From contig NC_134032.1 in NCBI RefSeq assembly GCF_964204645.1, forward strand, positions 7,738,275 to 7,802,274: a DNA stretch of 64,000 bases, read 5' to 3'. Shown piece by piece: positions 36,742 to 57,100 of this stretch (position 1 is its first letter; each line of letters starts with the position of its first letter). This DNA comes from Tubulanus polymorphus. Lineage: Eukaryota > Animalia > Nemertea. The position numbers were made by a program, and so were the translations under genes. The notes beneath the pieces are model-generated. The model was not told the origin of the DNA. It searched no databases and worked only from the letters and a program-made list of their open reading frames with translations.

Positions 36742-37119
36742 ATCAGGGTGGCGTAGGCATGGTAACAATGTTCAAATCCAAGAAATTTGACAAAATGGAG
36801 GATTTTCTCTCTCATTCAACTGGACTTAAGGGGTCTTTTTGCCAATCCATCTAATCGGTACAGAACTGGAAATATATCGGATATTCAGTTGTTGTCCGCG
36901 ATTTTTGGCATTCTGTTAAGACATAAATGAGGTATGTACCCCAAAAAGTAAGCAAAATATCCCAGAAAAACAGGTCTCATCAATTAATAAATAGACATTA
37001 GCTCAGTCAGTTTTGGTAGTACATACTTGATAGAAGTCTTATTGGAATGGAAACAGAATGCATTGGCAGCTGACCTAATTATTAGGCTAATTATCGTTTT
37101 TTAATCCACTTAAATCCAC

Positions 37120-37324
37120 GATAAACAATTGGCTGTTAAGGATCAGTATCAGCGGGCGCGACACCTTACTATATTAAAATAACAAGGGATGAAACGGCTT
37201 CGCTTTTGCCTGTGACCGTATTGATGCGGCGGAAACCACCGAGCGTTCATCCCTTGCCTTGTTATTTTAATAAAGTAAGGTGTCGCGCTTGCTGATACTG
37301 ATCCTTAACAGCCAATTGTTTATC
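37120..37324. repeat. Palindromic foldback MITE (~75-bp arms)
   Basis: gataaacaattggctgttaaggatcagtatcagc... and its reverse complement ...gctgatactgatccttaacagccaattgtttatc. Confidence 0.85.
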
Positions 37325-38707
37325 GGAACTGTATAGTGGATAAATAAACAACATCAACAAGAGGTATTTCTGTGATATTTTGAATTTATTTGCAGTTTAA
37401 ATTTAGCGCCATTCTCGCGAGATTATCAACAACCCGGAAGTAAAATCCAAGCCAGTTTACACAAGCCCCTGTGTTGAAATAGACATTACGCCAAACCCGC
37501 TCCCGAGTCCCGTCCCGAACCTGTCCAAATTTTTCAAAGATTCACTCACTCACCCAAGAAAAACTCACTCACCTTTTAGATTTTTTCTAAACAACGAGTA
37601 TAACAGCGATTTGGTCAAGCTGTAATGCTGCAACTTTAGGGCCAAGAACAAAATGAACTGGACTTTTTAGGCCATAAGGCCTACTAAATGTCGATTTCGA
37701 TCGTCGCTCCATTTTGGCTTAATCATGTACGGTGGGGGTTGTGGCTACGTGGAAGCGCAGTACGGCCTTATAGGCTCGAATCCCGTTAACAATTTAATTT
37801 TTTGCGACGCTCGAGTAGTTTTTTTTTCTGTTGTATATTATGTGGAGTTATTGTCAATTGTCTGTCCTAAATTTTACATTTAAAGGTAGGCCTACACGAG
37901 CGGGTGTCCTGTTCGTTGAATTGAAACATAATAAATCCAATTTAGCTACAGTTTAAGCACACGAGCCGGCCATACGCTACGGTGATTTTCGATTGTGTGC
38001 CTCTAATTCTAAATCCTTTATACCCAGAAATGCCGCTCTATTGTTGTTATGTAGTTAGCATGCAAAGGTTCCATGAGACGACTACCGTATATTAGAGTAG
38101 AGGCTACTGGAAGCCCACTAAGATCCTGGTAAGAGAAATAGTGCGCGAACCACAACCCACATGCTGAAGTTCCACAATTTGCTAATCTTGAGCCACTACT
38201 AGTAGAACGGAGGTGAGACTTTTAACTCCATGGATGAATCATTTATTCCTGAGACCGATCTAACAAATAGCTTTCTATCACAAATAATATAGGCTGAATC
38301 AAAACCCCTTTAATGTGTTCGAACAGAATCCAGGTAATAATGCCAGAGGTAGGCCTATGCCATAATAATGCCGAAGTAAAAAATGCCAGAGGTAAAAAAT
38401 GCCAGAGGAAATATGAGGAAAAATAAGCGAAGAATTCATTAACATTGGACCTAGCCTATTCTTATGTGCACTAGATTTTACGTAATGAATGCACAGTTTA
38501 GATTACCGTACATATATTCCGATAAAACCTAAAAAATGAATGACAAATTAGTGAAATAGGCCTATTGAGAATCACAAATTTATTGAATAAAGTCTGACAT
38601 AGGCCTACGCAAGAAATTCATTAAAATTATTGATATTCTTATTTGCACAAGATGATATTGAGATACAATTTTTTCGGTTCATTGGAAATCAAAAAATTAA
38701 TGCACCT

Positions 38708-38858
38708 AAGTAAATAGGAACAAGTTGGTTCAGGCCAATGGTCGAAGGGTCGAGCTCATAAAAAATGAAAATAAATTCTCGCACACTCGAATTTATTTTT
38801 AGTTTTTACTCACACACCCCTTCAACCTTTAACCTGAACCAACTTATTCCTATTTACT
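38708..38858. repeat. Small palindromic MITE
   Basis: agtaaataggaacaagttggttcagg ... cctgaaccaacttattcctatttact. Confidence 0.75.
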
Positions 38859-39165
38859 CTTAAGTATAAGTATAAGTATATAAGTATTTATTCACATAAT
38901 AGATTGATACAAAGCATTTAGGTATACATGTATAATAAAAACAGTGTAGCAATAAATTATGCGAGGGGTTAGGAAAAGCCAAATCAACGGCTTAAACAAG
39001 TCCTTTCCCCTCTACAACATACACACCTCACACCCTCTCACAGCAATCATTCACTCGTTACACAATCATACTGAAAAAGTAGCATAATAAATCTAATCAA
39101 AAGTAATTAGATATATTATGATTAAAAAAAACGAACAAAAACCAAAGGCTAACATGCTGATGGGC

Positions 39166-40095
39166 TCAGTTATTACTAATTAGATAAGATTTAAGGGATT
39201 TGGTGAAAGTATTTAGTTGACTTATAGATTTTAGTTTATTTGGCAGTGCATTCCAATGTTTAGGTCCTTGAATTTTGATAGAGTTAATTCTGAGATTCAG
39301 TTTAGCAAACTCGATGTGCAGGTTTTTGGGTCGACGTGAGGACCACCTATTACAAGTAACATTGCGAAAATAGAAAAACTCTTTAAAAACTGAGGGCAAC
39401 AAATTATGTAACTGTGAAAAAACAAATGTGACCAATTGAAGTTTATAAATATCATGCAGTTTTGGAATACCCAATTTCTTAAAGATCGGCGAGGTATGCT
39501 CGAGCCAATCCAAGCGTGTTATAATCCTAATTGCCTTCTTTTGAAGTACAAGTAAAGGTTGTAAATTCGAAATACAAGCGTTCCCCCAAATGATATTGGA
39601 ATATTGCAAATGTGAATGAACAAAACAAAAGTAAAGATTTTTTAACACATCAGAAGGGACGAAATGCTTGAGCCTGTTGAGGACCCCAATACCCCGTGAT
39701 ACTGTTTTACATATATGGATGATATGGTCTTTCCATGTTAGTCTCTGATCGAAAATTACTCCAAAAAATTTTGCGTTATCAACACGTTTTATTTTTTGTC
39801 CACCGAGGAAAAGATTGAGATGGATATGGGGTTTAGAACCGAAAATAATAAATTGTGTTTTGCAAATATTAACAGAAAGCCTATTGGCTCTGAACCATTG
39901 TAGTAGTTTATCTAATTCCGAGTTCAATAAAAGTTCTAATTCGTGTGGCTTTTTACCACTTACAAAAAAATTACTGTCATCTGCAAATAATATAGATTCC
40001 AGTAGTTTACATGAAGATGGGCAGTCGTTTATATAAAATAAGAAAAGCAAAGGTCTTAAAATTGAACCCTGGGGAACCCCTGAAATTAAATTAGC
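39166..40095 (-). pseudogene. LINE ORF2, RT C-terminal half
   Basis: GVPQGS, LFLFYIND, FADDS, KFFGVIFD, LQKKAIRII, HTSPIFKKL. The listed ORF 39166-40308 runs on into Polinton TIR sequence. Confidence 0.95.
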
Positions 40096-40101
40096 AGTGT
40101 T

Positions 40102-40325
40102 AGTAGTATAGCTATAAGGGGGTTCTGGCACAGTAGGCAAACTAGGCAAACTTTTAGGCAAATTTGGCAAACATTTATGCAAATTGTGCAAACTTTTTAT
40201 GCAAATCCGGCAAAGTTTTTGGCAAACATTTAGGTGAATCCGGCAAATTTGGCAAACGTTTAGGCAAAGTGACATGTGATTTCGGCAAACATTGGGTGAT
40301 GTCGGCACACTTTCTGGGAAACTCG
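40102..40325 (+). repeat. Polinton left TIR with GGCAAA iterons
   Basis: Reverse-complement match to 53854-54044, with iteron copy-number differences. Confidence 0.95.
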
Positions 40326-40418
40326 TTGGAATTCTGGATAAGATTTTAGGTAGTATTTTGTGTTATTTCCTTTTGTGATGTATTTATCGTTATTGTTTTA
40401 TTTGCTTGAAATCAGCTG

Positions 40419-40578
40419 GTCACGTGAGGTAATTTTAAAATGTCTATTGTTTTATTGATTTTCTGCGGTTTTCGCGGTAAAAATTCTATGAACTGAGTAA
40501 TTAATCTCCAGATGTGGGTCAGATGTGACGTCATTTTAGGGTATATAACGTGGGATCTTTAGGGGTTGGGTATCATTC
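40419..40578 (+). promoter_or_regulatory. Left-end Pol II promoter (E-box, CRE, TATA, Inr-like)
   Basis: CACGTG ~40421, TGACGTCA 40526-40533, TATATAA 40542-40548, TCATT ~40573, ATG at 40591. Confidence 0.65.
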
Positions 40579-40590
40579 CTTCGCTTGGCC

Positions 40591-41354
40591 ATGGATGACT
40601 TCAGTACTCCGCTCCTGACGAGAACTATGACGACTCCTAGTGCTCCGGCAAAGAGACCGCGTAAACTCAATTTTAAGAATTTAAAGTTGGATGTTGATAT
40701 TACGAAAATTCAAGGTACGTGTGTGAAAATTTCTTTTTCCGGATTTATTTCGAGTTATGTTATGAAGTGATTTTTAATTTAGTTTTTGTTTATTTAGATG
40801 TACAAAAGAATGACGTTTACGTGAAAACTGATGACGGTCATCACTACTTGGGAAATTCAATTTTCGCGAAGTCGACTGAATGGGAGGGTATCAAACGAAT
40901 TGATATACGAGCGCATGAACTCAGTGATGATTTCAGGATCTATCCGATGAAACGTGGTATCAGCTTACATCTCCAGGAATGGGTTCATCTTGTGTGGAAT
41001 AGGGAAGGAATAAATAGTGCGATCCAGTCATTTGTCAATAACAATACGGTGGAACATTTCCAAGTTCACATTGGTAGGAACCGTTATGTAACTGTTTTCA
41101 AGCGTTTCAATGAGATAATCGTTGATATACGTTATTTCTGTTATGACACTGAGTCTGCGCGTAAAATCCACACGAAAACTGGGATAGAATTATCCGATAA
41201 ACAGTGGGAAAAATTGTCGACTATTCCTTTCGCCAATTTCGAACCCGAGCTTGCTGAGATGCGTCCATGTATGTTCAATGAAGATCATCAGAATCAATTA
41301 GGAGCTTTGGAGTGCGTATACTGTAATCCTCAACCGGTGTTTCAAGTGGAATAG
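40591..41354 (+). CDS. Tandem PC4-domain ssDNA-binding/coactivator-like protein; exons 40591-40714 and 40798-41354
   Basis: Two PC4 repeats (RIDIR...KRGISL.LQEW and IGRNRYVTV...VDIRYF...KTGIELSDKQWEKL); in-frame GT..AG intron 40715-40797; NLS-like PAKRPRK; C-terminal C/H/CxxC cluster. Confidence 0.85.
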
Positions 41355-41812
41355 TGAAAATATAACAAAGTAATATTTTAGTTTTTAAAATCGAAAAATG
41401 TAAAATTTATTAAATGCATATGGGAATACAGTAAAAATATGGGTTACGTGTCTTATCGTCGGGATGGGGGGGGGGGGGGTATGTACGCACACGCATATTA
41501 GATACCAACTCTGGAAGATAATATTGAAATTGATTTTTCAAAAAATGTATACGAGTGAAGTAAAACCGAAATTAAATGGTTCGCCGAAAAAATAAAATGA
41601 AAATATCGTTGAAAATTTAATGTTTTTAAACGAAAACTAAAGTTTGAATTATTATGTTAAAACTTTTTTCATGAAGGAGAGTATATATTACAGCTTTGGA
41701 AAACTTTTATAAATATTAATACAATGAAAGTGATGTAAAACCAACTTTGAATGTTTCGACGGAAAATTAAAGATTTTGATAGGTTTATGTTATGAAATAA
41801 TTAAAATAAACG

Positions 41813-41817
<5 letters not shown>

Positions 41818-41878
<61 letters not shown>
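41818..41878. repeat. (TA)n microsatellite
   Basis: About 30 TA units between the convergent PC4 and pPolB 3' ends. Confidence 0.98.
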
Positions 41879-41879
<1 letters not shown>

Positions 41880-41910
41880 CATAAGTTTGTTGTCTGTTCT
41901 AATTATCTAT

Positions 41911-44900
41911 TTAATCTATGGGAATTTCACGATGGCCATAAGCAAGAGTGCTTACGCCATCGTCTAAAATGTACCGCTTATCGTCGTAAGGTGATAAACC
42001 GACTTTATTCAGATGGACGGAATGAATTTTATGATTAAAGCTCCGTATGGAACGCATGCCGGTCATGAGGATAGATTTCTCCGTTATACATCTAATATAA
42101 TTATCATGCGACACGGACTGTTTGACAACGTATTTCGCAACGCCTTTTGCTGTCTTCTTCTCCACAAGAGTTCCGTCGTTATCCGGAGAAAGATATACCA
42201 TCGAGTACATCTTACTCCGCAAACCACAGAACTCTTTGATGGGGGAAGAATTGGTTTCATCCTTGAATTTGCCCAGAACATTTTTGTTGTTGTCCGAAAA
42301 CAAAGGATGACCAGTGGGATAGGCTGAGAAGTCGAACTGGTCGGAAATCTCCGCCATATCCGCGTACAAATCGTCGGTGCGAATAGCGTATGTCAAGCTG
42401 TCCGTATCGGTGAATAGGAGTTTGGCATTATCGCCATAAATTGCTTTAATTGACCCGTAATGAAATTGGTACATCAAAGTTTTACTAATGTCTAGAATAG
42501 CGAAACCAAGATACACGGGTTTATCGAGGGTGATCTGTATTTTTTGCTTTTTAACCCCCACAACATTTTCTGAAATTACATTCCATGAAATTGTAGATGG
42601 CTTCGCTAAAGCTCTTCTCAATTTATTGGGATCATTTATAATTTGGTAATTTAGCCTATGGCGAATATTCTCCATAGTCTTACCGAAACTGGCATTGTTC
42701 AAAAGTTTGTATAGATCCCTCTCAAAATTGGTTTTCGCCAGTTTTCGGTAATGGGTATTCAAACGAATGTATGGGGCCATCCATGCCGACTGAGTGAAAT
42801 ACAAAACCCGGTGAATTTGTGTCAATTTCATACCAAGTTTCAGATAAAGTTTGAGGTTCCTGTAATGAATAATATAGTTTTTCTTATTTCCAAGATTGGG
42901 AATAAGCTTGTGTATCTTGGTTTCGCTTAAATACAAAGATTGAAATAATTCTTTTTGATATGGTGAGAGCATATCCTCACTCACCGGCATGCGTTTCGGA
43001 GCTAGGGGAAAGTCATTGTGCAGGTCATGAAGCTCGGCACCGTATTCAAGGTCAACCTCGAGGACCATACCAAAAGGGGCGTCATCAGCCAAACCAATAA
43101 TACTCAGGGCAGTGGGCCAAAGAGGGTCAACGGGTTCCAACCACCTAAATCCGCTCACAGGTAGGGCCTGTGACATAGCCCAACCGTATAAATTATTCGC
43201 ATCCAAATACATAATATAGGATGATTCCATTGAAGGGTCATAATCGGCGAAATACTTGTTGTTAGCCTCGAAATATCGATGGGTAACAACAGAAATCCCG
43301 CCTCTTATGCCCTGTTCGATAAAAAGATACATGTTAATATCTGTGAACAATTCGAGTTCGACCTTGGTTAATTTTAGACACGCGTCCCACGAATAGCCGG
43401 GGAGAGTATAGTAGTGGGTGGGGTCTAGTTTATAACTTGCATGGGCGAAGGTTCTGAATTCCTCAAAAATATCGGCTAATAAAAGTACGTCCGTGCGCAA
43501 ATAGATATCGTGATATTCGCCCATGTCGGCAATACTGAATTGTTCCCAGATATTACGCGCATGTTGATAATCGCTATCAGAAATTTTGGTATCACCAAAT
43601 TTCTCAGCACCGGTCATGTATTCATATGGATATACCCCCTTGCGTAACAAAAGTTCAATTCGATTCCTGGGAAATTCCGAGTTTAAATTAATGGACTTTT
43701 CCCTCCCAGATTTCACCAAATTATCAGTAAGTGTACCGAGGGCGCTGTTTAGGAATGCCAGCGAATCGATGAAGCGCAGGGGGCCAAGAGTAAATGAAAT
43801 AAATTTCTCGGTGTTGGTCGGGATAATTGAAATCTTTTTACCCCGAAATTCCACATCACCGAGTGATCTTATTATCTCGTGACTGTCGTAACCTTTAAGG
43901 TTATGAAAAACAACAGGCACGAAATTTGGTACTTTGTAGGCTAAATTACACGTATTACAAGCGGGACCTCTATATTTGCCGGTTATGTGATCGTGATCCC
44001 TAAATTTTTTCCCGATAAAGATGACCTAAAATGCGCTTCATCTTCATCGCTCATGATCAAAGGTTGGGGATTTTTGTACTCGTTCAAGATGTCCTCAGCC
44101 GTTTCGAGGAGGTTTTGGAGGAATGTCCTCATAACATTTCCCCCCCTATACAACACTGAAGGTTTCGAATAAGGGGTTTCTGGTCCGACCACTTTATAAC
44201 AAAAACCCGATGGTTCATGTACCTGATAGCGTGAAGTCCAAGATTGGGTCTGGTCCCGGGAACATCCTTGAATGGGAGATAAAAACATTTCGAAATCAGC
44301 GTATATGATATAAGGGACTTTATGCTGTTTAGCGACATTACCAAATTTCAAAATATTCTCATTTTCATCAGGGAGTACAGTCCTCTGGATTCCATGAATA
44401 CAGTACTGGTGATGAGTGTTTAGAATATCTCGACTTGAAAAAGTGTTTAAACACTTAAAACACCAGTATGACCGAGCCTTATGCCTGTTTATATGGTATA
44501 AAAATCGATTCAAATCTTTTATCAGGCAATAATGGGAATCATCGCCCAATGAAAGCTTTAAAAGGTTTACATGTTTCTCAAGTGGTTTATCACTCAAACG
44601 ACGAGGGAAAATATTACCATCTTCTTGGACGAAAACGTTAACTGATATATCGTTCTGTCTTTCGAATATCGGTATTTGCTCTTCGGTCATCGGATAATTG
44701 ATACCATTCATGTCCAATTCATCCTCATACCGTTTATACTGTGATACCCGTTGGGGGTTCGCATCCGCCGGGTGAAGGTGGGCGAGAATACACCAAAGAA
44801 AACACTTGTTGTCGCGATTTTTTATGTTTATCACCCCACCTCTAGAAATAATTATACGAGGTGAAGGGATAAACAAACCTCCACCCAGTGGAGCATAAAT

Positions 44901-45794
44901 ACCAGTGTGGAGATCTAGTGCAACCACGTGGTCGAACACCCAACCGGAACCATTAGTATTATACTGTTCCATTAGTTGGATTAACCTAATTTTCGCGTGT
45001 TCTATTTGCTCATCAAAGTGTATTTCGTTGAGAGCAGTTTGACATTCGAGGGTGAAAAAAACTCTTTTCACTTCGGGGTTGTCCCCGACATGCTTCTCGA
45101 GTACGACTCGAAGACTGGCGAACCATTTAATACCCCCATGCAAGCTTAAATCTTGCTTAAGCAGATGGAGGATGTTCGGTTTTAAATCATTAAAAAATTT
45201 CAAAAGATCAAATTTATTATCTTCCGAAGCTGGTATCTGATAGCGAGATACATACCCCTGCAACACATCGCCGACCTGTACGTCCATCCACCCTCGAATA
45301 GTTTCATCCAGTTCCAACTCTTCCCACTCGAATTCCTGTGGGATTGCTAGACCTGGTTGGGGGTGGATGTTTACGTTTCCAACCCCCGGTGGTGGTGGTG
45401 GAGGGGGTACATCGCCAGCTTCTGCTACCACTGGTTGGGGGGCGGCGGCGGGAGGTGCCCCAGGTTCAGCAGATTCTTGTTGGGGGGCGACGGGAAGTAT
45501 CCCAGGTCCAGCAGCCTCTGGTTGGGGAGCGGCGGGGGGTTCCTCGTCATCTCCATGTCCCCCTCGACACCTCGGGAAATGATCCCTTCTTATATACACT
45601 TCCGAAGCAAACTCCCGACCGCACTTCGGGCACGCCGGTTTCGGCCCTCGGTGATTATCGCGCATGTGCTTCGAGCGCGAACACGAATGCCGGAAAACTT
45701 TGTCACACTCGAAGCACTGGTAGAGCCTGCCCGAAGGCAGGCCGGGAGCCGAACCCTCCTCCGCAATTCGTTCGGTTATCTGTTGTTGGGCCAT
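41911..45794 (-). pseudogene. pPolB: Protein-primed family B DNA polymerase with N-terminal C2H2 fingers and an EndoVII-like insert; frameshifted near 44010
   Basis: IYADFE, FHNLKGYD, YLDANNLYG, KLLNNASFGK, FTDTDS, K..AKGV; RDHDHITGKYRGPACNTCNL bridges the two listed ORFs; an apparent in-frame deletion at FGDTK/ISDSDY. Confidence 0.95.
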
Positions 45795-45884
45795 CTGAAA
45801 ATGAAAAAAAAAGTAAGAACCCTTTAAGTGTGTATTGATAGTGGAACGATTTCGCTTTAATCATTTTTTCACCCGAAATCAAGG

Positions 45885-46506
45885 ATGGAGGTTATTGATT
45901 TACCGCCGATCCAGTTGCAAGGATGGTTTACATCGATAATAAATGGGATGACAGGTATTGGGAAAACTGTATTTACTAGAAGATTGATCGAGGAGAAAAT
46001 GTTTGACCCATTCCCCGATCGTATAGTTTGGGTATACGTTGAGGACCAGGAATTATATCACGATTTGAAAGGCGTTGAATTTGTTAGAGGATTAACCGAG
46101 GAACTCTATGAAAGCTTATCCGGTTCCGATACGACAAAATTACTCATATTAGATGACATCCTAAACGACTGTGATCCGAAATTATTGGAAACTATTTTCA
46201 CTCGTGGAAGTCATCATTCTAATATCGCAGACTCTTTTCCCGAAAGGGCCCCACTTTAGGACCATTTCGCTAAATACGCATTACATAGTTCTATTCAAAC
46301 ACCCAAGAGATCGACTTCAAGTAAAAACTTTGGCCATGCAATCAGGGTTAGAAAAATCGCTCGAGGAGGCTTTTGCCGATGCGACTTCTATTTCGCCACG
46401 CGGGTATTTGTTTTGTGATTTTAAACCGCAAACACCCGATAAGTGGAGATTACGTACACGAATATTTCCGAGTGATCATATCTATTATCGAATTAAAAAT
46501 CATTAA
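45885..46506 (+). pseudogene. A32-like (FtsK-HerA) packaging ATPase, frameshifted near 46225
   Basis: Walker A GMTGIGKT, Walker B LLILDD, FTRGSHH, then RTISLNTHYIVLFKHPRD in the next frame. Confidence 0.92.
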
Positions 46507-46567
46507 ACGTTTGGTTGGTGGCGTCATGAATCTGATAAATGAGATGAAAGAAAACGTGTGTACTACA

Positions 46568-46888
46568 ATGGGAAAGCATTCACACGTGCGAGATTTTGCG
46601 CCTCACCTAAAATTGCTGTGCGAGGGAAATAAAAAGATGCGTATCGCTATAATATCTTCTTCCCCGAATAAACTAAGCAATGTTATATGCGAAATTTGCA
46701 TTAATTCATTAAGAGGAAATATTAATCACAGCGAATCGGATAAAAAGAAATTGAAGCGACATAAAAAGTGGATCAGAATTCTCGCTAATAAACGCGTTCC
46801 GATTAAATCGAAGAAACCTTTAATAATACAGAAAGGCGGATTTCTAGGGTTGATACTGAAAGGTCTAGGACGTCTACTGGGCTTATAA
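46568..46888 (+). CDS. Small basic Polinton virion protein with C-terminal amphipathic peptide
   Basis: ICEICINSLRGN, Lys/Arg-rich, ends QKGGFLGLILKGLGRLLGL. Confidence 0.75.
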   Translation: MGKHSHVRDFAPHLKLLCEGNKKMRIAIISSSPNKLSNVICEICINSLRGNINHSESDKKKLKRHKKWIRILANKRVPIKSKKPLIIQKGGFLGLILKGLGRLLGL

Positions 46889-46889
46889 A

Positions 46890-47627
46890 ATGAAGAATGT
46901 CGATAAACTTTTCGTGGTTCCAGAGTCATTCATCCCGATAATCGAGAGATTATCCTCAAATACGCGAGGAAAAACCGATTCTTCGAGTACACCAAAGTCG
47001 AGCGATGATAGAGCACGAACCGTCGAAAGTCATATGACCGACGTTCTACAAATGAATGGTATTGGAGATGACGTAATACTAAAACTTTACAATAATTCGC
47101 TAAATAAACTAATGAAAATCGAGGAATTGGCAAGGGATTCAATAGCGAATAAAGTCATACCGTCGGCTGAGGATACATCGCGTTCCGAGAGAATTGTCGA
47201 AAATAAAACGAGTATTGATCGAGAGATTCTGAATAATGTTCCGAAAAACTATAGAAGGAAGGCAGAGCAGTTGCTGCAACGAATCAAACGGTTTCCGGAT
47301 ATACTTTCTTGGACTGACAAGGGCGAAATTATTTTCAGGGGGGTAAAACAGAATGATAGTAATATTTTTGATTTAATGAATCTGTGTATGTCGCCGAATA
47401 AAGATGTTCAACTGAGTGGTATCGAAGATTTCATCTCGGCATTGCGGGAGATAAGCGTCCCACAGACATATATCCCTAATAAAGTTATTAGGAATATGTT
47501 AACGAATAATCAACGTACCTTATTTAGTTCACCGCCTTCAGAGAGAAAAAGAAGAAAGATAACTGTGAAACGTGGATCCGATGTTGAATCTGAAAATGTA
47601 GATATTGAGAACTGGATATATTTCTGA
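46890..47627 (+). CDS. Conserved Polinton protein of unknown function, 245 aa
   Basis: Intact ORF with VP..Y..KA..LL...SW..KGEI...SNI.DL and a C-terminal W..F, recalled from other Polintons; NLS-like RKRRK; AATAAA near 47820. Confidence 0.7.
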   Translation: MKNVDKLFVVPESFIPIIERLSSNTRGKTDSSSTPKSSDDRARTVESHMTDVLQMNGIGDDVILKLYNNSLNKLMKIEELARDSIANKVIPSAEDTSRSERIVENKTSIDREILNNVPKNYRRKAEQLLQRIKRFPDILSWTDKGEIIFRGVKQNDSNIFDLMNLCMSPNKDVQLSGIEDFISALREISVPQTYIPNKVIRNMLTNNQRTLFSSPPSERKRRKITVKRGSDVESENVDIENWIYF

Positions 47628-47911
47628 CCATCGAAAAGTCGGGTGAAAAGGATAAGTTTTCAATTTGTTTACAACCTACCTCAAATCAGTAATGACTACG
47701 TAGGTTGTTTGTTTGTTTGTTTGTTTTTGAAGCCGAACAGCACTTTTGATTTGATACTGTCTGAACCTGAAAAGAAATGTAATTCCTCATTTATTTTCCC
47801 GTTGTACATTTTGTGAAACAATAAAAATATATCAGATAAATTTATGGGGTTTATTTTTCAATTTCTACATCGTTCATTAAGCCTTTATCCCTCGGGCACT
47901 GAACATCGAAA

Positions 47912-48436
47912 ATGATTGAGGTGGTTAATGTAGTAGCGACGGCAAACCTAAATTCAAACTTGAATCTCGATGAATTGGCTAAAACGATGCACAATGTCAT
48001 TCATAATCCACTTAAATTTAGCGCGCTCACTATGAGACATAGGCGTATCAAAGGTACTTGTCTATTCTTCACTACTGGGAAAATGGTCTGCAATGGAACA
48101 AGATCTATAGCGGAGTGTTATACCAGCGTGCGACGATTTGCTAGGCTAATACAGAAAAAGGATATCGCTGTGAAGTTAACTGACTTCAAAATTCAGACTA
48201 TGACCGGTGTTGCGAAAACAGGGGTGAAAGTAAATCTAACTCTTTTGAATTCATTAATTGGCGGAAGTTATAATCCGGAGATCACTCCTAGCCTCATTTA
48301 TCGTCGTGGAAGTATTTCGTTCATAATTCAACATAAAGGGAGTGTAATTATAAGCGGGTGTAAATCATTAAATGAAATAATATCGGCACTACCGGATATT
48401 TTGTTTAATATGCACGTGTGTGAATATACAGCATGA
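47912..48436 (+). CDS. TBP: Divergent TATA-box-binding protein homologue (core domain only), Polinton-encoded
   Basis: Colinear with the TBP core: NVVATANL, NP.KFSAL.MR, FTTGKMVCNG, RRFARLIQK, DFKIQTMTG, YNPE..PSLIYR, G.VIISG.K; intact and intronless. Confidence 0.93.
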   Translation: MIEVVNVVATANLNSNLNLDELAKTMHNVIHNPLKFSALTMRHRRIKGTCLFFTTGKMVCNGTRSIAECYTSVRRFARLIQKKDIAVKLTDFKIQTMTGVAKTGVKVNLTLLNSLIGGSYNPEITPSLIYRRGSISFIIQHKGSVIISGCKSLNEIISALPDILFNMHVCEYTA

Positions 48437-48523
48437 GCTCGTGCTTTCCACGCTCGCAATCAATGATTACTGTGGACTGTAAAGGGATGAAAATCTCTTG
48501 CTGTCAATCGAAAATAGAGGATA

Positions 48524-49606
48524 ATGTCGACTCACGTGAGCCCCCGCGTGGAAAAGATATTGACGGAACTGTATTACAACCCCGAAAATCCAAGTGCATT
48601 CGGTGGCATAAATGCTTTGTATCGTGCTGCAAGGCTAACCGGGGAGAAGATCAACATTGAAACTATCAAAGTCACAAGAAGCATATACTCTACATCGTCC
48701 AACTCGTAAACGTTTCAAAAGGAATAAAACAATAGTTTCCGGTATTAATCAACAACATCAAATCGATTTGTGTGATCTATCGAATTTATCTAGATGGAAT
48801 AAAGGGTATAGATATTTGCTCATGTCAATCGACGGTTTTTCTAAAATTGCCTATGCTATCCTCATCAAAACGAAAAATAGTCGAGAAGTTTGTTCGGCGT
48901 TCGAGAAAGTTATAATTCAAAGTCGTATGAAGAAAGTACAGAGCGATAAAGGTACCGAGTTTTTAAACGTTCATTTCGCTAAACTGATGAAAAAGTACGG
49001 AATACCTCACTTTACAAGTGAAGATACAGTAAAATGCAGCATTGTGGAAAGACTTATACGAACGATAAAGGGGAGGTTATTTCGCTATATGACAGCACAT
49101 ACCTCGAAAACTTACATTAACGTTCTTCCACAAATAATGAAAGCTTATAACGAATCGTATCATCGATCGATTAAAATGTCACCGAACCAAGTAAACGAAT
49201 CTAATGAGAAATTAGTCTGGGAGAATTTATACGGAAGCGAATCTCTTATTAATAAACAATTCAAGTACTCTGTCGGCGATGCGGTTAGAATCGCGAGATA
49301 TAAGAAGGATTTCGATAAGGGGTATTTGCCCGGTTGGTCACACGAAATATTTACAATCACTAAACAGGTTGCACACAATCCACCGACCTACCACATAGTG
49401 GATCAAATGGGCGAGCGAGTTCAGGGCCAATTCTATTCCCATGAATTGCAAAAAGTAATTAAAAGGTGGATGACGTCTATCGAATAGAAAAGATTATCCG
49501 TAGTCGGGGGCGAGGAAACAATCGCGAGCTGTTCATTAAGTGGTTGGGATACCCATCGAAATTTAATTCTTGGATTCCAGCGCGTGACCTAAAGAAAGAT
49601 GCGTGA
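48524..49606 (+). pseudogene. Retroviral-type DDE integrase with C-terminal chromodomain; frameshifts near 48670 and 49465
   Basis: LYYNPENPSAFGG, AYTLH, QIDLCDL, QSDKGTEF, IVERLIRT; tail YRIEKII...FIKWLGYPSKFNSWI. Confidence 0.93.
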
Positions 49607-50406
49607 CTTTTATTTAACATTGTTAAGCGATGGAAGCATGGATGAATTTCCCGATAATTCTCAAAAGAAGTTTAAAGTGAAACTTAGGGGGACGATTAAT
49701 CTGGATGGAAACTGGGAAGTTGCGCTAGTGCACATAAATTTCAACTGCGAATTCGATAATATAACAACCGGTGAATTCTACGTCGACTCTGGAAAAGGAG
49801 AATGGAGCGAGGCGTATAACGTTAGCGGCGGGATATATAAAAATATCGAATCACTGATAAATCAAGTGAACTCTGCTTTAATACGCACATCGGCAACGAA
49901 TAGAATAAAACTATTTCTATAATGAAATAAGTCAGCGAGTCTCGATCAGATTATTCGCAAATGCAAAAATTAAGTTCAAAAACGATCTAGCTTGGGTGTT
50001 TGGATTCCCTTCGATGCACGTTCTCGACGCTAATATTTTCAACGAAAATGATACGGACACTAAAATCGTACGAAAATCAAATACAAACTCGAGCTATGTC
50101 GAAGTTATAGCGTCTAGACCCGTTGACCTCATGGCTGATAACCACAACATCTTGATCTATTCAGAGTTAATTCAACATCAACAAGTCGGGCATGATAGCG
50201 CACCATTATTAAGGATTGTAGGTGTAAACGATATAAATCAAACAGTTATAGATCGAGAATTCAGAAGACCTTATTATCTACCTCTCAGGAGTAATCGACT
50301 GGATGTTATTGAAATCTATATGAACAAAGATAGCGGATCCCCGCCCATCTTTAAAAGGGGAAAAGTCTCCCTCGTATTACATTTTAGACGGAAATTGCAA
50401 ATATGA
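49599..50406 (+). pseudogene. Minor capsid (penton) protein; 1-bp frameshift near 49915
   Basis: FYLTL.SD.SM..FPDN, WEVAL, IYSELIQ.Q.VG...APLLRIV, LVLHFR. Confidence 0.85.
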
Positions 50407-50750
50407 AGACTGAATGCACAATAGATCAAGACGCGTGTTGTGATTATTATTTACGACAGGCAGGCGGCGGGAATGATTTCTACCACGGTCGACCGGTACA
50501 AAGAGGGGCCGGTATCGGCTCTATCCTCAGCGGATTATTCAGGGGGGCGATCCCATTGTTTAAGACGATTGCAAAGAAAGCAGCACCACATATAATTAAA
50601 GCCGGTGTTAACACTATAGGTGACGTCATCGAAGGAAGAGACTTAGGAGCCCCAATAAACCGAGGAAACGTAAAGTCAGATCAAAGACGCATAAACCACG
50701 GCAGGCAAAACGTCAGCGCAGATTTAACGAGACTTTGGAAGCGTATTAAT
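50403..50750 (+). CDS. Polinton core/virion protein with Gly-rich candidate protease sites; C-terminus probably disrupted
   Basis: YYLRQAGGG...QRGAGIGSILSGLFRGAIPLFK; a basic tail RKRKVRSK... appears in a shifted frame. Confidence 0.7.
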
Positions 50751-50776
50751 TGTTCATTATTTACACCATTGGCAAC

Positions 50777-52096
50777 ATGAGTTTGAAAGTTCACAAAGAC
50801 TCGCAACCCGCTTTGAAGAGTGAATTGGACATCTTCTCACTACCGATGACTAATATTACGATGGAATCTGCGCATTACGCCAAATATCAACCGTTAGCTA
50901 CGATCACCGACAGTGGAAATATCGATTTTCTCATAACCGGGAACTCTCAACATTATCTAGATTTGAATCACACGTGGTTAGATGTCGCATTCAAAATTGT
51001 AAAGGGTGACGGCAGTCCAATGATTAATGGTAAAGCCGACGATCCGGTGGCTCCATTAATAAATTCCGGTCAATCACTATTCAGTGATGTCGAGGTTCGA
51101 TTCAACGATAAATTAGTTAGCAATGGAATGGACCTACACCCGATTAGAGCCGCTATTGAGAATTTGATATTCTGTCAATCATCGTCGAAACCGGGGTGGA
51201 TGGAAAGCGCTATGATATATAAAGACGAAGCCGGGCGTATGAACGATACAGATCCTAGAAACGCAGACTGTAATTACGGGCTAAAAGAACGCTATGATTT
51301 ACTGAAAAATTCAAACCATCTTACACAAGTACAACTACGATTACACAGCGATGCGTTCGGATTAGATAAACTATTGCTATCAAATGTAACGGTAAAAGTT
51401 AAATTGATAAGGAGTAAGGATGCGTTTTGTATTATGTCTCCGAATCCCGAAGTGAAATTTAAAGTAAAAATTGAAAACGCCACATTAAATGTGAGACGAG
51501 TTCAGCTGAGTCCTTCAGTTCAACTTGCCCATGAAAAAGCTTTGTCTACTAGCAATGCAAAGTATCATTTCGTAAAAACAAGTATTTTTCCGGTGAATAT
51601 CCCACGCGGAGTACGTAGTGTTATAAGAGATAATCTGATAATTGGCAATATACCAAGGAATATAATTATCGCTTTCTGTTCGGACGAATCGCTGAGTGGA
51701 AGCTATGGCAAAAACCCGTTCGACTTTAAACACTATGATATCACTAGAATTGTGGTTTCCCTCAATGGTTCGCAAGTTGAATCAAAGGTTATAAATTTCG
51801 AGTCGAAAGACTTGTGCGAAGGTTATTTCTCGTTATTCACGGGAACCGGTATTCTATACCAAGATAAAACAATTGGAATAACTAGAAAAGATTACGCTCG
51901 CGGCTATTTCTTAACTGCGTTTGATTTGACACCCGACTTTGGGTTCACTGACCTGGCTATCAGCAAAAAAGGATCGCTTCGAGTAGAACTGGAATTTTCA
52001 AAGCCTCTCCCCGAAAATATTAATCTATTGTTATACGCTAACTTCGATGAGGTTTTAGAAATTACGAAAGATCGAACAGTTGTAACAGATTTTTAG
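50777..52096 (+). CDS. Double jelly-roll major capsid protein, 439 aa, intact
   Basis: KSELDIFS.P.T, YLDL..T.L, SLFS.V.V, G.Y.KNPF.F, AFDLTPD, LRVEL.F; position between penton/core genes and protease. Confidence 0.9.
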   Translation: MSLKVHKDSQPALKSELDIFSLPMTNITMESAHYAKYQPLATITDSGNIDFLITGNSQHYLDLNHTWLDVAFKIVKGDGSPMINGKADDPVAPLINSGQSLFSDVEVRFNDKLVSNGMDLHPIRAAIENLIFCQSSSKPGWMESAMIYKDEAGRMNDTDPRNADCNYGLKERYDLLKNSNHLTQVQLRLHSDAFGLDKLLLSNVTVKVKLIRSKDAFCIMSPNPEVKFKVKIENATLNVRRVQLSPSVQLAHEKALSTSNAKYHFVKTSIFPVNIPRGVRSVIRDNLIIGNIPRNIIIAFCSDESLSGSYGKNPFDFKHYDITRIVVSLNGSQVESKVINFESKDLCEGYFSLFTGTGILYQDKTIGITRKDYARGYFLTAFDLTPDFGFTDLAISKKGSLRVELEFSKPLPENINLLLYANFDEVLEITKDRTVVTDF

Positions 52097-52105
52097 ATAA
52101 AAAGA

Positions 52106-52573
52106 ATGTTGTATACCGATGAATTAATGAATATTTGAAGTAATGATACGTGCGTAAGTAAATTGTTTAAAGGTGTTTATCCGGCTAATCGTCTGCCCGT
52201 AAATCCTGTATACCCTAGTATTTTCATTGTTAACTCCCAAAATAGTGATAAGAGCGGTGAACATTGGATTTGTTTGATATTATTCGCAAATAAACGGGGA
52301 TATTACGTAGACAGTTACGGACAAAAACCAGAATTCTATAATATCTTATTGAGAAACTATTTAGATACGCACTGTCATTGCTGGGAATATTCTCGAATTA
52401 GAGTCCAAAGTTTGTTTAGTACGAATTGCGGTTACTATTGCATTTATTTCATAACACTTCTTTCACACGGAATCAGTTTCCCCGAAATATTCAGTATTTT
52501 CAGTAAAAACGATTATGAATATAACGATTACTACGTTAAAAATTTCGCCAATAAGTATTTCATTAGAATGTGA
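52106..52573 (+). CDS. Adenain-like cysteine maturation protease (N-terminal frameshift)
   Basis: GEHW, VDSYG and Q.....NCGYYC catalytic motifs; ATG at 52106 is out of frame with the listed ORF; AATAAA near 52644. Confidence 0.9.
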
Positions 52574-52940
52574 AATTCAATTTGTTTTTAAATTTCAAAC
52601 TATGTACAACAATTTGTAAACGATCAGTCATTGGGAACATTCAAATAAAAACAATGTAGATTTAGATTTGAAAAAAAAACAAGAATTTACCTTATAGTTG
52701 ATTAATCGATCCGATGGATTCCTCGTGTTAGTTCGATGTCTAGGGCTCGCTGAAGCGGTTGATACCAGGAGTGCAAACGGAAAAGGTCGAGTCGAGGTGC
52801 TTCGCATTTTTAAAAACCCTCACAACAATGGAATGAACAAATCATCCCGTAATCCAGTCAAAATACTCTCCAAAAATGCGCGAACACATTTCATTGGGTT
52901 ACACTCACCACGTGATGAGACCCCAACGATTCTTGAAACG

Positions 52941-53131
52941 TGATCGATGTTATCCTTTCCCTCCGTTACGGAGGGCAGAAGATTTTCCCAACCTCAGTTT
53001 TACACAGGGACCGTCATCAAAGCTTTTGTCATATTGATCGATGTTATTTATCCCTTCCCTCCGTTACGGGGGCAGAAAATTTTCCCAACCTCAGTTTTAT
53101 TACAGGGACCGTCATCAAAGCTTTTGTCATA
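52941..53131. repeat. Imperfect tandem duplication, 2 x ~94 bp
   Basis: tgatcgatgttat...cagggaccgtcatcaaagcttttgtcata occurs twice. Confidence 0.95.
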
Positions 53132-53722
53132 CACACCGCAATTCAGCTGATCGTTGCATTATCCAGAAACATACAACGCGTCCTGTAGCATACTTTTGAA
53201 AATAAAATTCAGGTGACCACCAATCGTACTCTCCGAACCGAAGGTCAACAATACGTTAATGAGACCATAATAATCAATCACGGATACAAATAAAAGATAG
53301 TGGAAATACGCATCTCGTATCAATACCATCGAAGGAGAGACCTGTACTTAGAAAAAATGCGATAACCGTGAGAAAATATAGTTTCTCATCACGATATCAA
53401 TTTATCAAAGTAATTCATTCTAATCATTATATTCAAATCATTACCCTCTCAAATTACCACCGGACGCACCTTACTCAGCACAATTACAATTCATACATTC
53501 AGATAATTATATTTAACCCGTTAACCTTTAACTTCATTACTACACACAAATCACCGCTGTGTTACCATATTTCATAGATAACCCTCATTGTACATCTTTT
53601 CCCCCTCCTTAAATTCACAGTAACTAATCAATTATTATTACTTTTTATACATTGTTTTATCAGTACTTCCATTACAATCCCTTACCCCTACCATATGATG
53701 ATAATAATAAAGACAGCTCCCC

Positions 53723-53840
53723 AATACACCCTTAAATTACGCAACATCTGACTCCAGAACAAACATTTTTACCCAAGTCTAAAGAAATTTTTCCACGAAA
53801 ACACAAAAAACAATACAAATTTTGTCACCTCACATAACCA
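53723..53840 (-). promoter_or_regulatory. Right-end inward-facing promoter-like block related to the left one
   Basis: Minus strand gtcagatgttgcgtaatttaagggtgtatt versus left gtcagatgtgacgtcattttagggtatata (24/30 identical). Confidence 0.55.
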
Positions 53841-53853
53841 ACCGGTTCTTGTC

Positions 53854-54044
53854 CGAGTTTCCCAGAAAGTTTGCCGACATCACCCAATGTTTGCCGAAAT
53901 CACATGTCACTTTGCCTTAACGTTTGCCAGATTTGTTGAAAACTTTGCCGGTTTCACCTAAATGTTTGCCAAAAACTTTGCCGGATTTGGAAAAGTTTGC
54001 CTAGTTTGCCTACTGTGCCAGAACCCCCTTATAGCTATACTACT
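53854..54044 (-). repeat. Polinton right TIR
   Basis: Ends ...CCCCCTTATAGCTATACTACT, followed by the TSD AGTGTT. Confidence 0.95.
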
Positions 54045-55810
54045 AGTGTTGGAAATATGTTTATTATATTTTACGGCCTGTTTTCGTGCTGATAGATAAT
54101 TTTTGAACCAAATTAAAGATTGGCCGCGTATTCCATAATGCTCCAATTTAGCTAAAAGGATTTGATGGTTAAGCGTTAAGACCCAAACAGTTGTCTTTTT
54201 CCAGGTAGTTTGATATTTTGTCTAGAATATAGGACAAAGCCGAAGAAGTGGAGTGCTTCTTCCTGAAACCAAACTGATGATTACTTAGAATATTAAATTT
54301 TTATAGGAAAGACGACAGCCGATTGTAAACAAGTTTTTCAAGGATTTTTGAAACCGACGGAAGAACCGATATTGGCCGGTAGTTACTAAAAAGTGATTTG
54401 TCACCATCCTTATAGATAGGAGTGACGAGGGCAATTTTAATTGGCTAGGCACAATGCCCGTTAAAAGGCTGCAATTGAAGATATGAAGTGGTTGCGATAT
54501 TATTTCTATAATAGATTTTAGTAGTTTCATACTTATCTTGCAACTGCCACAGGAGGATTTATTTTTCATTTTTGAAACTAAAGTTACAATTTCTCACCCA
54601 GAAAATCATTGAAATCATGCGTGGAACTAGGAATATTGGATTCGAGCTTCGACACAATATTTACAAAGTAATCATTGAAATGATTGGCAATATCCTGTTC
54701 ATCGGATAAAATCTCATTATCATATTTAAAATCAGCATCAAGCCTGTCTTTTTTACCCTTTTTAAGTAATGAATTTACAAGTTTCCAGGTTTCTCTTTGA
54801 TTATGCTTACATGAGAAAAATTTTTCTCTGTTGTAACCATCTTTACATTTCTTAATTACAGAATTTAAAATATTACGATATTTACAGTAATTTTCTTTGC
54901 TTTGTAAAGACCTGGACTTTGTATACTCTCTGTATAATTTTTCCTTACGTTTTATAGAACATTTAATTCCAGACGTGATCCAAGGTTTACTAATGCTACC
55001 GGATTTTGGAGAAATATACTTATAAGGAAAACAAGCTTCATAACAACTATCTACAATATTATAGAACTCATTGTATGAGATTTCGGGGTCGTTACTATTG
55101 TAAACACACTGCCAGTTACTAGTTAAAAGACAGCGTGAAAAATGGTCGATCGATCTAGGGTTTGTATTACGGATCTGAATTTTAGGCGTCGATGACTAGC
55201 CTCATGTAAAATTCCAGTGATAATAGCAAAAACGGGGCAGTGATCCGTGATATCAACCAAAAATACACCGCTAGATATCTGGAATTCTACATGGAAATTT
55301 ACTAAAATGTTATCAATAATGGTCGCTGAGTGGTCAGTGACCCGAGTAGGTAGCGGAGCAAAAGAATTAGAAATTGCTTCGTTTATAAATGAGTCACACA
55401 TAGCACTATTCCCATAATTACCAAAGTCTATATTGTAATCACCCATCAAAATAACATTGAGTTTCTCATTTGAAATTGTTACCATAAAGGATTCAAACTC
55501 ACTTAAAAATTCATTAAGATCTGATTCTGGTGGTCGGTAGATCACACCTATTAACATCTTTCTAGAATTTTGACCACTGATCTCTATGAATAAGTTTTCA
55601 GCTATAGATAGATCTTCCCTAATTTTGAAGGGAATTGAGTCGTTGATCAAAAGACCAACTCCGCCCCCTCCTTTGTTAGATCTGCTACAGAAAATACTAG
55701 CGTAATTAGGAAGGTGGTACAGAGACTCGTTAGGAACATTGCCGTCGGTCCATGTTTCTGTTAATCCAATAACAGAAAATGTATAGTTTAATAAATTTTC
55801 GCTTCTTTGG
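54045..55810 (-). pseudogene. LINE ORF2, APE endonuclease and RT N-terminal half (frameshifted)
   Basis: IGLTETW, GGGVG, IYRPP, MGDYNID, PTRVT..SATIIDNI, DITDH; then YRPISVLP and YGIRG....WFKNYLS.RKQ. Confidence 0.92.
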
Positions 55811-57100
55811 AGTAACGAAAACATCTGCATCCGATTCAGACTTCCATGCATCCACGAAGTTTTTGGAGAGTGCAGATTTCCCAAGGTCGTTTAGATGTAT
55901 ACCAGTGTTGTCACTGATATTATAGAAACGCTCTCTTATCGCTCCCAACGGTTTGAAAACGATATCATTGTTTATATACACGATGTTCTGTTTAGAACAG
56001 AAATTGTCCATAAATGTATTCACCGTTTCAGATGCAGCATTGAAATCTGCAGCAGCAGCAGTGACAGCTTTCCTAGGTATTATGCTAGAAAGAGCTATTT
56101 TTGCATTTAGATAATGTTCGTGTACTTTAGCCATCGCGACTGTCAAATTCATTTTCGCGGTGTCGATTTCTGACTTATAACGGTTAACGTCATTGGTACC
56201 GAGGTGAACCACGACGTAAGTAACGGAGTCGGGCTCAGGGATCTGAGAGTCGGCTTTGTCGAATAGCTGCTCGACGTTCTCTGCCGGTGCTCCAGATTGA
56301 TGTATCACGATTCCGTCAGGATACTTTAAGTTTCTCATGTTAGAATCTCCGATTATAACGTTTATGGAAGATTGTTTACTCGGTTCCGGTGCTGTCGGTT
56401 CCGGCACTGGTTCCGATTGCATTGTTGGTGATTTTTCGACTGATTCCGTATTATTACCCTCATCGGGATTTAATTGGCTGTCACGAGGTTTACAATTTAA
56501 CTGACAGTCACGAGCTTTATGGTCTAATGCTCCACATTTGAAGCATTCGATTGATCTTGTTCTTTATTTCAGGTGACATTCGTATGAGCTGTGATCACCT
56601 AGGCAATGTTGGCAACATATACCTGTACAGTACAAACGAACTTTAAAGCCATGTATATTTGTATACGTCGGTATTACATCGGTGACTTTTTTAAGTTTAA
56701 GATACCGCGTACCGGTGAAAATATCAGTACCTTTTATGGTACCTTTCTGATTGATCCGTCAACTTACTCACCGAATTTACTTATAAAGTTCGCTATGGTT
56801 TTATCATCCATTTCTATCGGTGCATCCACTAACTTAACAGTCATATAATTCTCATCAACATCCATAAAGTTAATAGACACTCCATTAATAATTAATCCCG
56901 ACAATCTCAAACTGTTTTTACTTTCCAAATTTGCTGTTGTTATAACACAGTCTTTTGCGGTTATTTGGACAGAGTAAATTAAACCTACGTCCATTTTGTG
57001 TCTTATTGCCTCGATAATTTGCTGGTGGGATATTTTATTTTCACTTCCTAACTCCTGTTATCCAAATTTGATGGACATATCTCTTGTTAATCAACTCATA
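55730..57100 (-). pseudogene. LINE ORF1: RRM-like N-terminus, two CCHC knuckles and SGNH/GDSL esterase
   Basis: TVKLVDAPIEMDDK.I..F.SKFG; CQHCLGDHSSYEC and CFKCGALDHKARDC (~56500-56615); IGDSN, HLGTND, GIHLN..G. Confidence 0.8.

Follow-up and report, generated by a model that had tools for sequence, protein, structure and literature searches.

A conserved mini-TBP as the candidate agent of an early-to-late switch in a clade of animal Polintons

We analyzed a window of 64,000 nucleotides from the nemertean Tubulanus polymorphus (contig NC_134032.1, positions 7,738,275 to 7,802,274; positions below are counted within this window). It contains a Polinton that encodes a tandem PC4 and a small TBP, here called mini-TBP, and we found that this TBP belongs to a clade of proteins carried by many Polintons. 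An earlier note on this DNA had proposed that element-encoded factors redirect host RNA polymerase II (Pol II) to the capsid genes. That interpretation holds in part: the TBP is conserved and the promoter pattern is present in relatives, but the pattern is not seen in the present copy, and the module of TBP, PC4 and promoters was overstated. An early-to-late switch by TBP swap is likely across the family and unproven for the present copy. We give a probability of about 0.5 to the reading that the mini-TBP takes the place of host TBP at altered boxes and in this way brings host TFIIB and Pol II to the virion block.

Our profile searches recovered a family of proteins of about 170 aa; 147 of them, chosen among the best matches by length and divergence, were aligned, and further members exist. 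The named sequences are from Mercenaria and Pinctada, both bivalves, and from symbiont bins. In a tree of 43 rows, built without named TBPL1/TRF2 sequences, the 24 sampled mini-TBPs fell on one side of a branch with support 99/95. The present copy paired with the member P0002, outside the large group that contains the bivalve sequences.

Because the 35-sequence TBP alignment proved too diverse to scan for loci, a 63-sequence subclade that excludes the present copy was used to fetch them (80 of the 102 metagenome loci); none of them comes from the present copy's sub-lineage. Polinton core genes or PC4 were carried by 47 of the 51 top-ranked metagenome loci. From the other 29, 8 loci with Polinton genes or PC4 were added and 21 were dropped as other TBPs. 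No Polinton gene was found at three loci from viral and genome contigs, and single-protein scans of viral contigs with the TBP and the capsid protein returned nothing. The earlier note would have given up its proposal if the TBP were limited to this one copy, and it turned out to be a conserved gene of many Polintons. The tree and the Polinton gene context also rule out that the gene is a passenger host TBP.

The promoters of the relatives were then compared. An unbiased 6-mer count placed TAAGAA first before late genes (19/65) and TATAAA first before TBP/PC4 (12/54). Removal of near-duplicates reduced the late upstreams from 66 to 45 and the TBP/PC4 upstreams from 83 to 54; TAAGAR was present in 17 of 45 upstreams of ATPase, ORFX, integrase and penton genes versus 1 of 54 TBP/PC4 upstreams (Fisher's test, P = 2e-6, with some PC4 starts uncertain). 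The box lay 30-40 nt before the virion-block genes, with 15 sites at 30-39 nt. When TBPs were grouped at 70% identity, TAAGAR occurred in 10 of 16 groups, against a null mean of 1.8 and a maximum of 7 in 5000. Before PC4/TBP, a cyclic-AMP response element (CRE) or CCAAT together with TATA was found in relatives, as in the present copy. Thus the pattern that had been predicted, TATA/CRE before PC4/TBP and another box before late genes, is seen in the relatives.

TAAGAR often overlaps a TAA stop codon. It is not merely that stop, because GAR follows the TBP stop only where a co-oriented gene lies behind it (14/18 such loci and 0/11 without, three internal fragments excluded); GAR followed the protease stop in 0/11. 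TAAGAR is mostly preceded by C and then A or G, which corresponds to a TATA octamer altered at positions 1-2 (departures to C in 10/15 and to G in 6/15). Written out, the family box reads CATAAGAR or CGTAAGAA, as against TATAAAAG.

A TBP-negative control was available in L084, a complete element of 12.3 kb bounded by terminal inverted repeats (TIRs) and the closest backbone found (integrase 45% and capsid 36% identical to the present copy, the latter over 429 columns). It has PC4 and no TBP. Canonical TATA was found at -44, -79, -52 and -45 of its four ATPase, ORFX, integrase and penton genes.

The mini-TBP itself is a two-lobed TBP core (Pfam PF00352, E 3.5e-33, two stretches). Its predicted structure, built with the 35-sequence family alignment, reached a predicted local distance difference test score (pLDDT) of 97 and template-modelling scores of 0.94-0.96 to the top human, plant and yeast TBP chains; it replaced a poor two-sequence version (pLDDT 52). 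The saddle of the TBP fold family is thus present by Pfam and by model. Residue numbers below are human, by alignment, and the contacts are those listed in Table 1 of PMC12529657 (yeast +98). According to PMC7221094, two acidic glutamates of the stirrup are the TFIIB contacts.

Across the 147 aligned members, the partner faces are kept (E284 in 127, E286 in 142, R235 in 146, R239 in 145), as are N167 (144) and the phenylalanines F214 (142), F288 (131) and, less often, F305 (103). The DNA face is altered in a consistent way: N257 is replaced by T in 142, V259 by S or T in 146 and T222 by N in 102 members. I292, V301 and L303 are changed in most, L303 not being among the six commonest states at its position; these are the positions of the TBPm3 mutant, which reads TGTAAA. 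In the present copy, 7 of 8 N-lobe DNA contacts are identical and 1 of 8 in the C-lobe. F288, F305, N257, V259 and K309 are all changed, so that the full set of four intercalating phenylalanines and paired Asn/Thr/Val contacts of a canonical TBP is not found in it. In the TFIIB-binding stirrup, it keeps E286 and, like P0002, has N at E284.

These observations suggest the following course. Host factors would fire the left CRE/TATA promoter and produce PC4, with TBP directly after it in many relatives. The mini-TBP, which keeps the saddle, the helix-2 arginines and mostly the TFIIB glutamates but has an altered DNA face, would then bring in host TFIIB and Pol II at TATA boxes with altered positions 1-2, and the downstream overlapping genes would be read from those few transcripts. 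Promoter binding and timing are predictions here; they build on the genes, clade, gene context and motif statistics observed in relatives. In a bolder and more tentative version, which we hold at somewhat less than even odds, a large animal-Polinton clade runs the smallest known viral early-to-late switch, made of a re-specified 170-aa TBP, host TFIIB and Pol II and a private TATA variant, and the present sub-lineage, having dropped both C-lobe phenylalanines, reads only half of the box. If true, this would show directly that Polintons have a regulated virion programme, and it would provide orthogonal TBP-promoter pairs from nature. With a conserved viral TBP and a box restricted to the virion block, a regulated Polinton virus cycle becomes testable by means of one small protein and short pieces of natural promoters.

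Several results weigh against such a switch. In the relatives, 28 of 45 late upstreams lack TAAGAR, as do all 9 of the protease gene; the matches before capsid genes (6/11) sit in Lys/Arg-rich coding sequence; and 6 of 16 TBP groups are without the box, including the most divergent, L045, L051, L077 and L080. The metagenome loci are related to one another, and a few datasets supplied many of them. The TBP-negative control consists of one complete element (L084) and one partial locus (L116). Part of the family box is readable by host TBP, because the G(-26) TATA variant has been solved with wild-type TBP (1qn5). In the present copy, TAAGAR precedes one of nine late genes, the ATPase, where its placement at -71 is in the top 5% of windows, and a de novo motif search of its nine late upstreams gave P values of 0.52, 0.94 and 0.42 for 5-, 6- and 7-mers. 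The loss of F288 and F305 and the change of E284 to N are unlike most family members, so the box of the relatives may not apply to this copy. That its TBP gene is intact is no evidence of selection, because a 525-bp gene would stay whole by chance at about 70%, given about 7 breaks in 10.9 kb of coding sequence (our own arithmetic).

In the present copy, TATA[AT]A was absent at -90..-15 before all nine plus-strand block genes, which agrees with the statement of the earlier note that TBP lies in a plus-strand virion block without clear TATA boxes (0/9 canonical). In this respect the copy resembles its TBP-positive relatives and differs from L084. The penton, pX and capsid genes overlap the preceding gene, and the 245-aa open reading frame (ORF) and the protease start within 1 and 9 nt of it. 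Because the block genes overlap or nearly abut, few promoters are expected and the box search is weak. The word TCATTAA (3/9 genes) was rejected as chance. GTAAR stands before the ATPase and integrase genes and in 14% of windows; it is post hoc and a lead only. The promoter pattern claimed for early and late genes therefore stands for the relatives and not for the present copy, in which no late box was demonstrated.

The best surviving alternative, which we consider unlikely, is that the mini-TBP is a decoy or a DNA binder outside promoters: it would sequester TFIIB, TFIIA, TAF1 or Mot1, or sit on the element ends, while host TBP/TFIID reads the late boxes. It would fit the better conservation of partner-binding residues than of DNA contacts, the sub-lineage that lacks both C-lobe phenylalanines, the missing late box of the present copy and the fact that wild-type TBP has been solved on several TATA variants. 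Against it stand the nearly invariant DNA contacts of the N-lobe (F214 142/147, N167 144/147) and the box, which departs from TATA in TBP-positive elements while it is canonical in TBP-negative L084.

Somewhat less likely still is that TBP and PC4 form an obligate two-part basal module in which PC4 coactivates the viral TBP. Of 35 loci that include at least 1 kb of upstream sequence, 22 have PC4 directly before TBP, and the two abut in L027, L030 and L031. In 36 polymerase-selected loci, most of them distant or partial, mini-TBP was found in 0 and a weak PC4 in 1. Adjacency is, however, explained by shared early timing; the genes are 6.5 kb apart in the present copy; and complete L084 has an orthologous PC4 (hhalign probability 99.7) and no TBP. 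PC4 also occurs without TBP and is thus an early gene that can be separated from it, not a proven partner. In phage T5 and bacteria, proteins with the PC4 fold serve replication and repair (PMC7549692). The earlier note had treated TBP, PC4 and paired promoters as one module, which L084 and the degenerate right promoter contradict.

The PC4 protein of the present copy has two PF02229 stretches (E 2.5e-15) in one chain and a Cys-His-Cys-Cys tail, and relatives have the same two domains and tail. It shares the PC4 domain, a fold that binds single-stranded DNA, with PC4/Sub1 and the phage T5 homologue, and differs from them in the two domains of one chain and in the tail. PC4/Sub1 carries a stacking residue, W89 or Tyr (PMC4350104). 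In the present copy this position is C in repeat 2 and non-aromatic in repeat 1, so that the stacking residue is absent; among 12 aligned relatives, 11 have Trp there in repeat 2. The protein is likely a single-chain pseudo-dimeric single-stranded-DNA-binding protein for replication or promoter opening. Its first exon is probably 40591-40714 (ATG at 40591), followed by a GT..AG intron at 40715-40797 that is frame-compatible by arithmetic. A word-based search with exon 2 found nothing. In some relatives (L014, L016, L020, L021) TBP is preceded by as many as three PC4-like genes; in others (L024:4682-5212, L034, L051) the virion block contains one PC4 domain that follows a hydrophobic segment.

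Improbable, finally, is that the TBP is a relic in the present sub-lineage, having lost DNA binding, with late genes read from ordinary or spliced transcripts. All of F288, F305, N257, V259 and K309 are changed, the KSHV (Kaposi's sarcoma-associated herpesvirus) protein ORF24 needs its TBP-like phenylalanines (PMC12529657), and six genes of the copy are broken. The odd C-lobe is nevertheless not decay of this copy, because it is common to P0002, which has the same five losses at 53% identity (40 of 75 C-lobe positions) and an identical 9-residue run across the F305 site; this points to selection. The pLDDT of 97 obtained with the family alignment is also against a relic.

For comparison with known systems, BcRF1 of Epstein-Barr virus and UL87 of human cytomegalovirus are viral TBPs of gamma- and beta-herpesviruses. 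The comparison was made with KSHV ORF24, which likewise combines a virus-encoded TBP fold, host Pol II and a non-canonical late box (PMC12529657). Its T124 to N change (Table 1 there) is matched by the T222 to N change in 102 of 147 mini-TBPs and in the present copy. ORF24 differs in being a protein of 752 aa with Pol II- and ORF34-binding domains that acts as one of six proteins in a complex, recognizes TATT and, by prediction, is TFIIB-incompatible (PMC12529657). The mini-TBP consists of nothing but a 170-aa core, in which the TFIIB glutamates are mostly retained, and no other complex members were found among the ORFs. A large viral TBP with a Pol II-binding N-terminal domain and five partners, as in the herpesvirus pre-initiation complex, is thus absent, and TATT was neither among the enriched words in the relatives' late upstreams nor a shared word in the present copy. 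The herpesvirus comparison therefore stands for the logic of a late switch and fails for the machinery, multi-domain and six-protein there and a bare TBP core here. By this analogy, the mini-TBP system would work like the herpesvirus late switch without being a member of that system.

Ravarani (2020) described that TBPs of large DNA viruses lost the TFIIB and the basic N-lobe regulatory signatures and pair with a viral TFIIB (PMC7221094). In contrast, both signatures are retained in the mini-TBP family, and the element is without TFIIB or RNA polymerase. In sequence identity the mini-TBP also resembles cellular TBP (about 35%) more than large-virus TBPs (10-23%), although viral TBP-fold matches exist. 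The viral TBPs known so far are accompanied by a viral polymerase and TFIIB (giant viruses) or belong to a six-protein complex (herpesviruses); a bare TBP with its host-TFIIB contacts retained would add a third design, a minimal one.

A figure on MELD viruses in Starrett (2021), in a section that covers non-animal datasets, marks one gene as TBP, and the passages found there give it no function, promoter motif or PC4 (PMC8502044). Our literature search turned up no paper about a TBP, PC4 or late box of animal Polintons, and where PC4 did occur in a Polinton paper it was a cluster label; the coverage of the search was partial, and prior art may exist. Mini-TBP genes occur in animal annotations under the name 'TBP-like 1' and in bacterial genome bins from bivalve hosts, so they can be mistaken for host paralogues or bacterial genes. 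We observed mini-TBP or Polinton polymerase genes in bacterial bins labelled as bivalve or sediment symbionts (P0241, P0266, P0279, P0283; L105, L117), which are most likely host contamination.

The features of the element are given in Table 1. Polintons are recognized by TIRs beginning with AG and a 6-bp target-site duplication (TSD), and both were found: AGTGTT flanks the element on either side, and the TIRs agree in 174 of 179 aligned columns. An empty-site joint, in which the element is skipped with 6 shared letters, was seen in a single contig of run X1 and in three run X4 reads; because these joints skip the element, the insertion is polymorphic and an empty allele exists. The claim of a TSD-bounded element was thus confirmed. 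Runs X1 and X4 also hold internally deleted and diverged copies (several joints, window 40930-53048), so an element family exists in T. polymorphus. The present copy is a decayed, recently inserted, insertion-polymorphic Polinton; it is dead and a poor object for testing.

Table 1. Features of the Polinton and its flanks (window positions).
Feature	Position	Strand	Basis or remark
Left TSD, AGTGTT	40096..40101		sequence; empty-site joint with 6 shared letters
Polinton element	40102-54044		13.9 kb; starts AGTAGT, ends ACTACT
Left TIR with internal GGCAAA repeats	40102..40325	+	weak likeness to right end continues to ~40550
Predicted early promoter	40421..40580	+	CACGTG 40421, CRE TGACGTCA 40526, TATATAA 40542
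Tandem PC4, C-terminal Cys-His-Cys-Cys tail, intact	40591..41354	+	PF02229 x2, family alignment
Probable family B DNA polymerase, broken near 44000	41911..45794	-	two frames vs single L084 ORF; motifs by eye
AGTAAGAA, only TAAGAR before a late gene in this copy (candidate)	45813..45820	+	71-73 nt before ATPase ATG
Packaging ATPase, frameshift near 46230	45885..46506	+	Adeno_IVa2/AAA below cut-off
Small basic conserved ORF, amphipathic peptide at end, intact	46544..46888	+	relatives
245-aa ORF, intact	46890..47627	+	relatives in L032, L047
Mini-TBP, 174 aa, intact	47912..48436	+	Pfam PF00352, alignment, model
Retroviral-type integrase with chromodomain, two frameshifts	48524..49606	+	Pfam rve, Chromo
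Presumed penton (minor capsid), frameshifted	49599..50406	+	position
pX/PZ-position gene, shorter than in another copy	50403..50780	+
Presumed major capsid protein, 439 aa, intact	50777..52096	+	36% identity with L084 (429 columns)
Adenain-type protease, premature stop near start	52106..52573	+	Pfam Peptidase_C5
98-bp tandem duplication in gene-free right arm	52950..53131	+	one-unit form in other copies
Degenerate counterpart of left promoter	53690..53760	-	alignment; TTGCGTAA replaces CRE, without TATA
Right TIR	53854..54044	-
Right TSD, AGTGTT	54045..54050		sequence

The gene order from left to right is tandem PC4 (+), polymerase (-) and then the plus-strand virion block of nine genes: ATPase, small basic ORF, 245-aa ORF, TBP, integrase-chromodomain, presumed penton, pX-position gene, presumed capsid and protease. 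The names penton, pX and capsid are presumed from position and conservation in relatives; the presumed major capsid protein had no Pfam match. With Polintons/Mavericks (adintoviruses, PMC8502044) the element shares TIRs, a 6-bp TSD, a probable PolB, an integrase with chromodomain, the ATPase, adenain and presumed penton and capsid. The integrase (Pfam rve above cut-off, plus Chromo) is of the expected retroviral type, though frameshifted. Adenain (Peptidase_C5) is above cut-off and the packaging ATPase (Adeno_IVa2/AAA) below, and both genes are broken. The polymerase shows family B motifs by eye and 40% identity to that of L084, and Pfam gave no PolB match for this broken gene.

Six of the 11 genes are broken or altered. 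Frame changes affect the polymerase, ATPase, integrase (twice) and penton genes, the protease stops early, and the pX-position gene is shortened relative to another copy; PC4, the small basic ORF, the 245-aa ORF, TBP and the presumed capsid are intact. Assembly error is unlikely as the cause, given difference-free X1 contigs that are identical to the window at 44681-46756 and 46735-50184 (X1 may be the source sample). A Pfam scan of 20 ORF pieces matched neither RNA polymerase nor TFIIB, in accord with the earlier note, which had reported intact TBP and PC4 homologues and no RNA polymerase. The small basic ORF is likely a virion core protein. In some relatives (L001-L004, L008, L012, L013) a second copy of it lies directly behind TBP, with a TAAGAA box on the TBP stop. 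The start of the polymerase ORF (45302-45794, -) shows two C2H2-like zinc-finger motifs and a Pro/Ala-rich repeat by eye, without a Pfam match.

The left promoter was described as a canonical CRE/TATA promoter ahead of PC4, and this was supported: the CRE TGACGTCA is perfect, and its pairing with a following TATATAA was reproduced in 0/20,000 dinucleotide-Markov simulations of the left stretch. The terminal promoters had been called paired, but only the left one is canonical; the right copy is degenerate (TTGCGTAA, without TATA). In the 1.3 kb behind the right copy, no ORF has a relative among 85 loci. TBP-negative L084 has genes behind both its ends, which means that promoters at the ends are not peculiar to elements with TBP. 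The polymerase ATG (45795-45815, -) comes directly after a pyrimidine tract and CAG, a splice acceptor, and the right-end promoter copy (53686-53700, -) is followed by ATG and a GT donor. A long spliced polymerase leader from the right end, comparable to that of adenovirus E2B, would give the degenerate right promoter a job. An acceptor-like site was also seen about 30 nt upstream of TBP.

Some further observations concern the surroundings of the element. It splits the reverse-transcriptase region of a long interspersed nuclear element, whose pieces lie at 39166-40095 and 54051-56563 on the minus strand and which also encodes an endonuclease and an ORF1 with zinc knuckle and GDSL-esterase. Rfam returned 0 matches. 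Short inverted-repeat elements occur at window 38700-38860 and 37119-37325, and one near 38780 is very high-copy in the reads. A fragment of a DDE_Tnp_4 (Harbinger-type) transposase lies at window 63335-63904.

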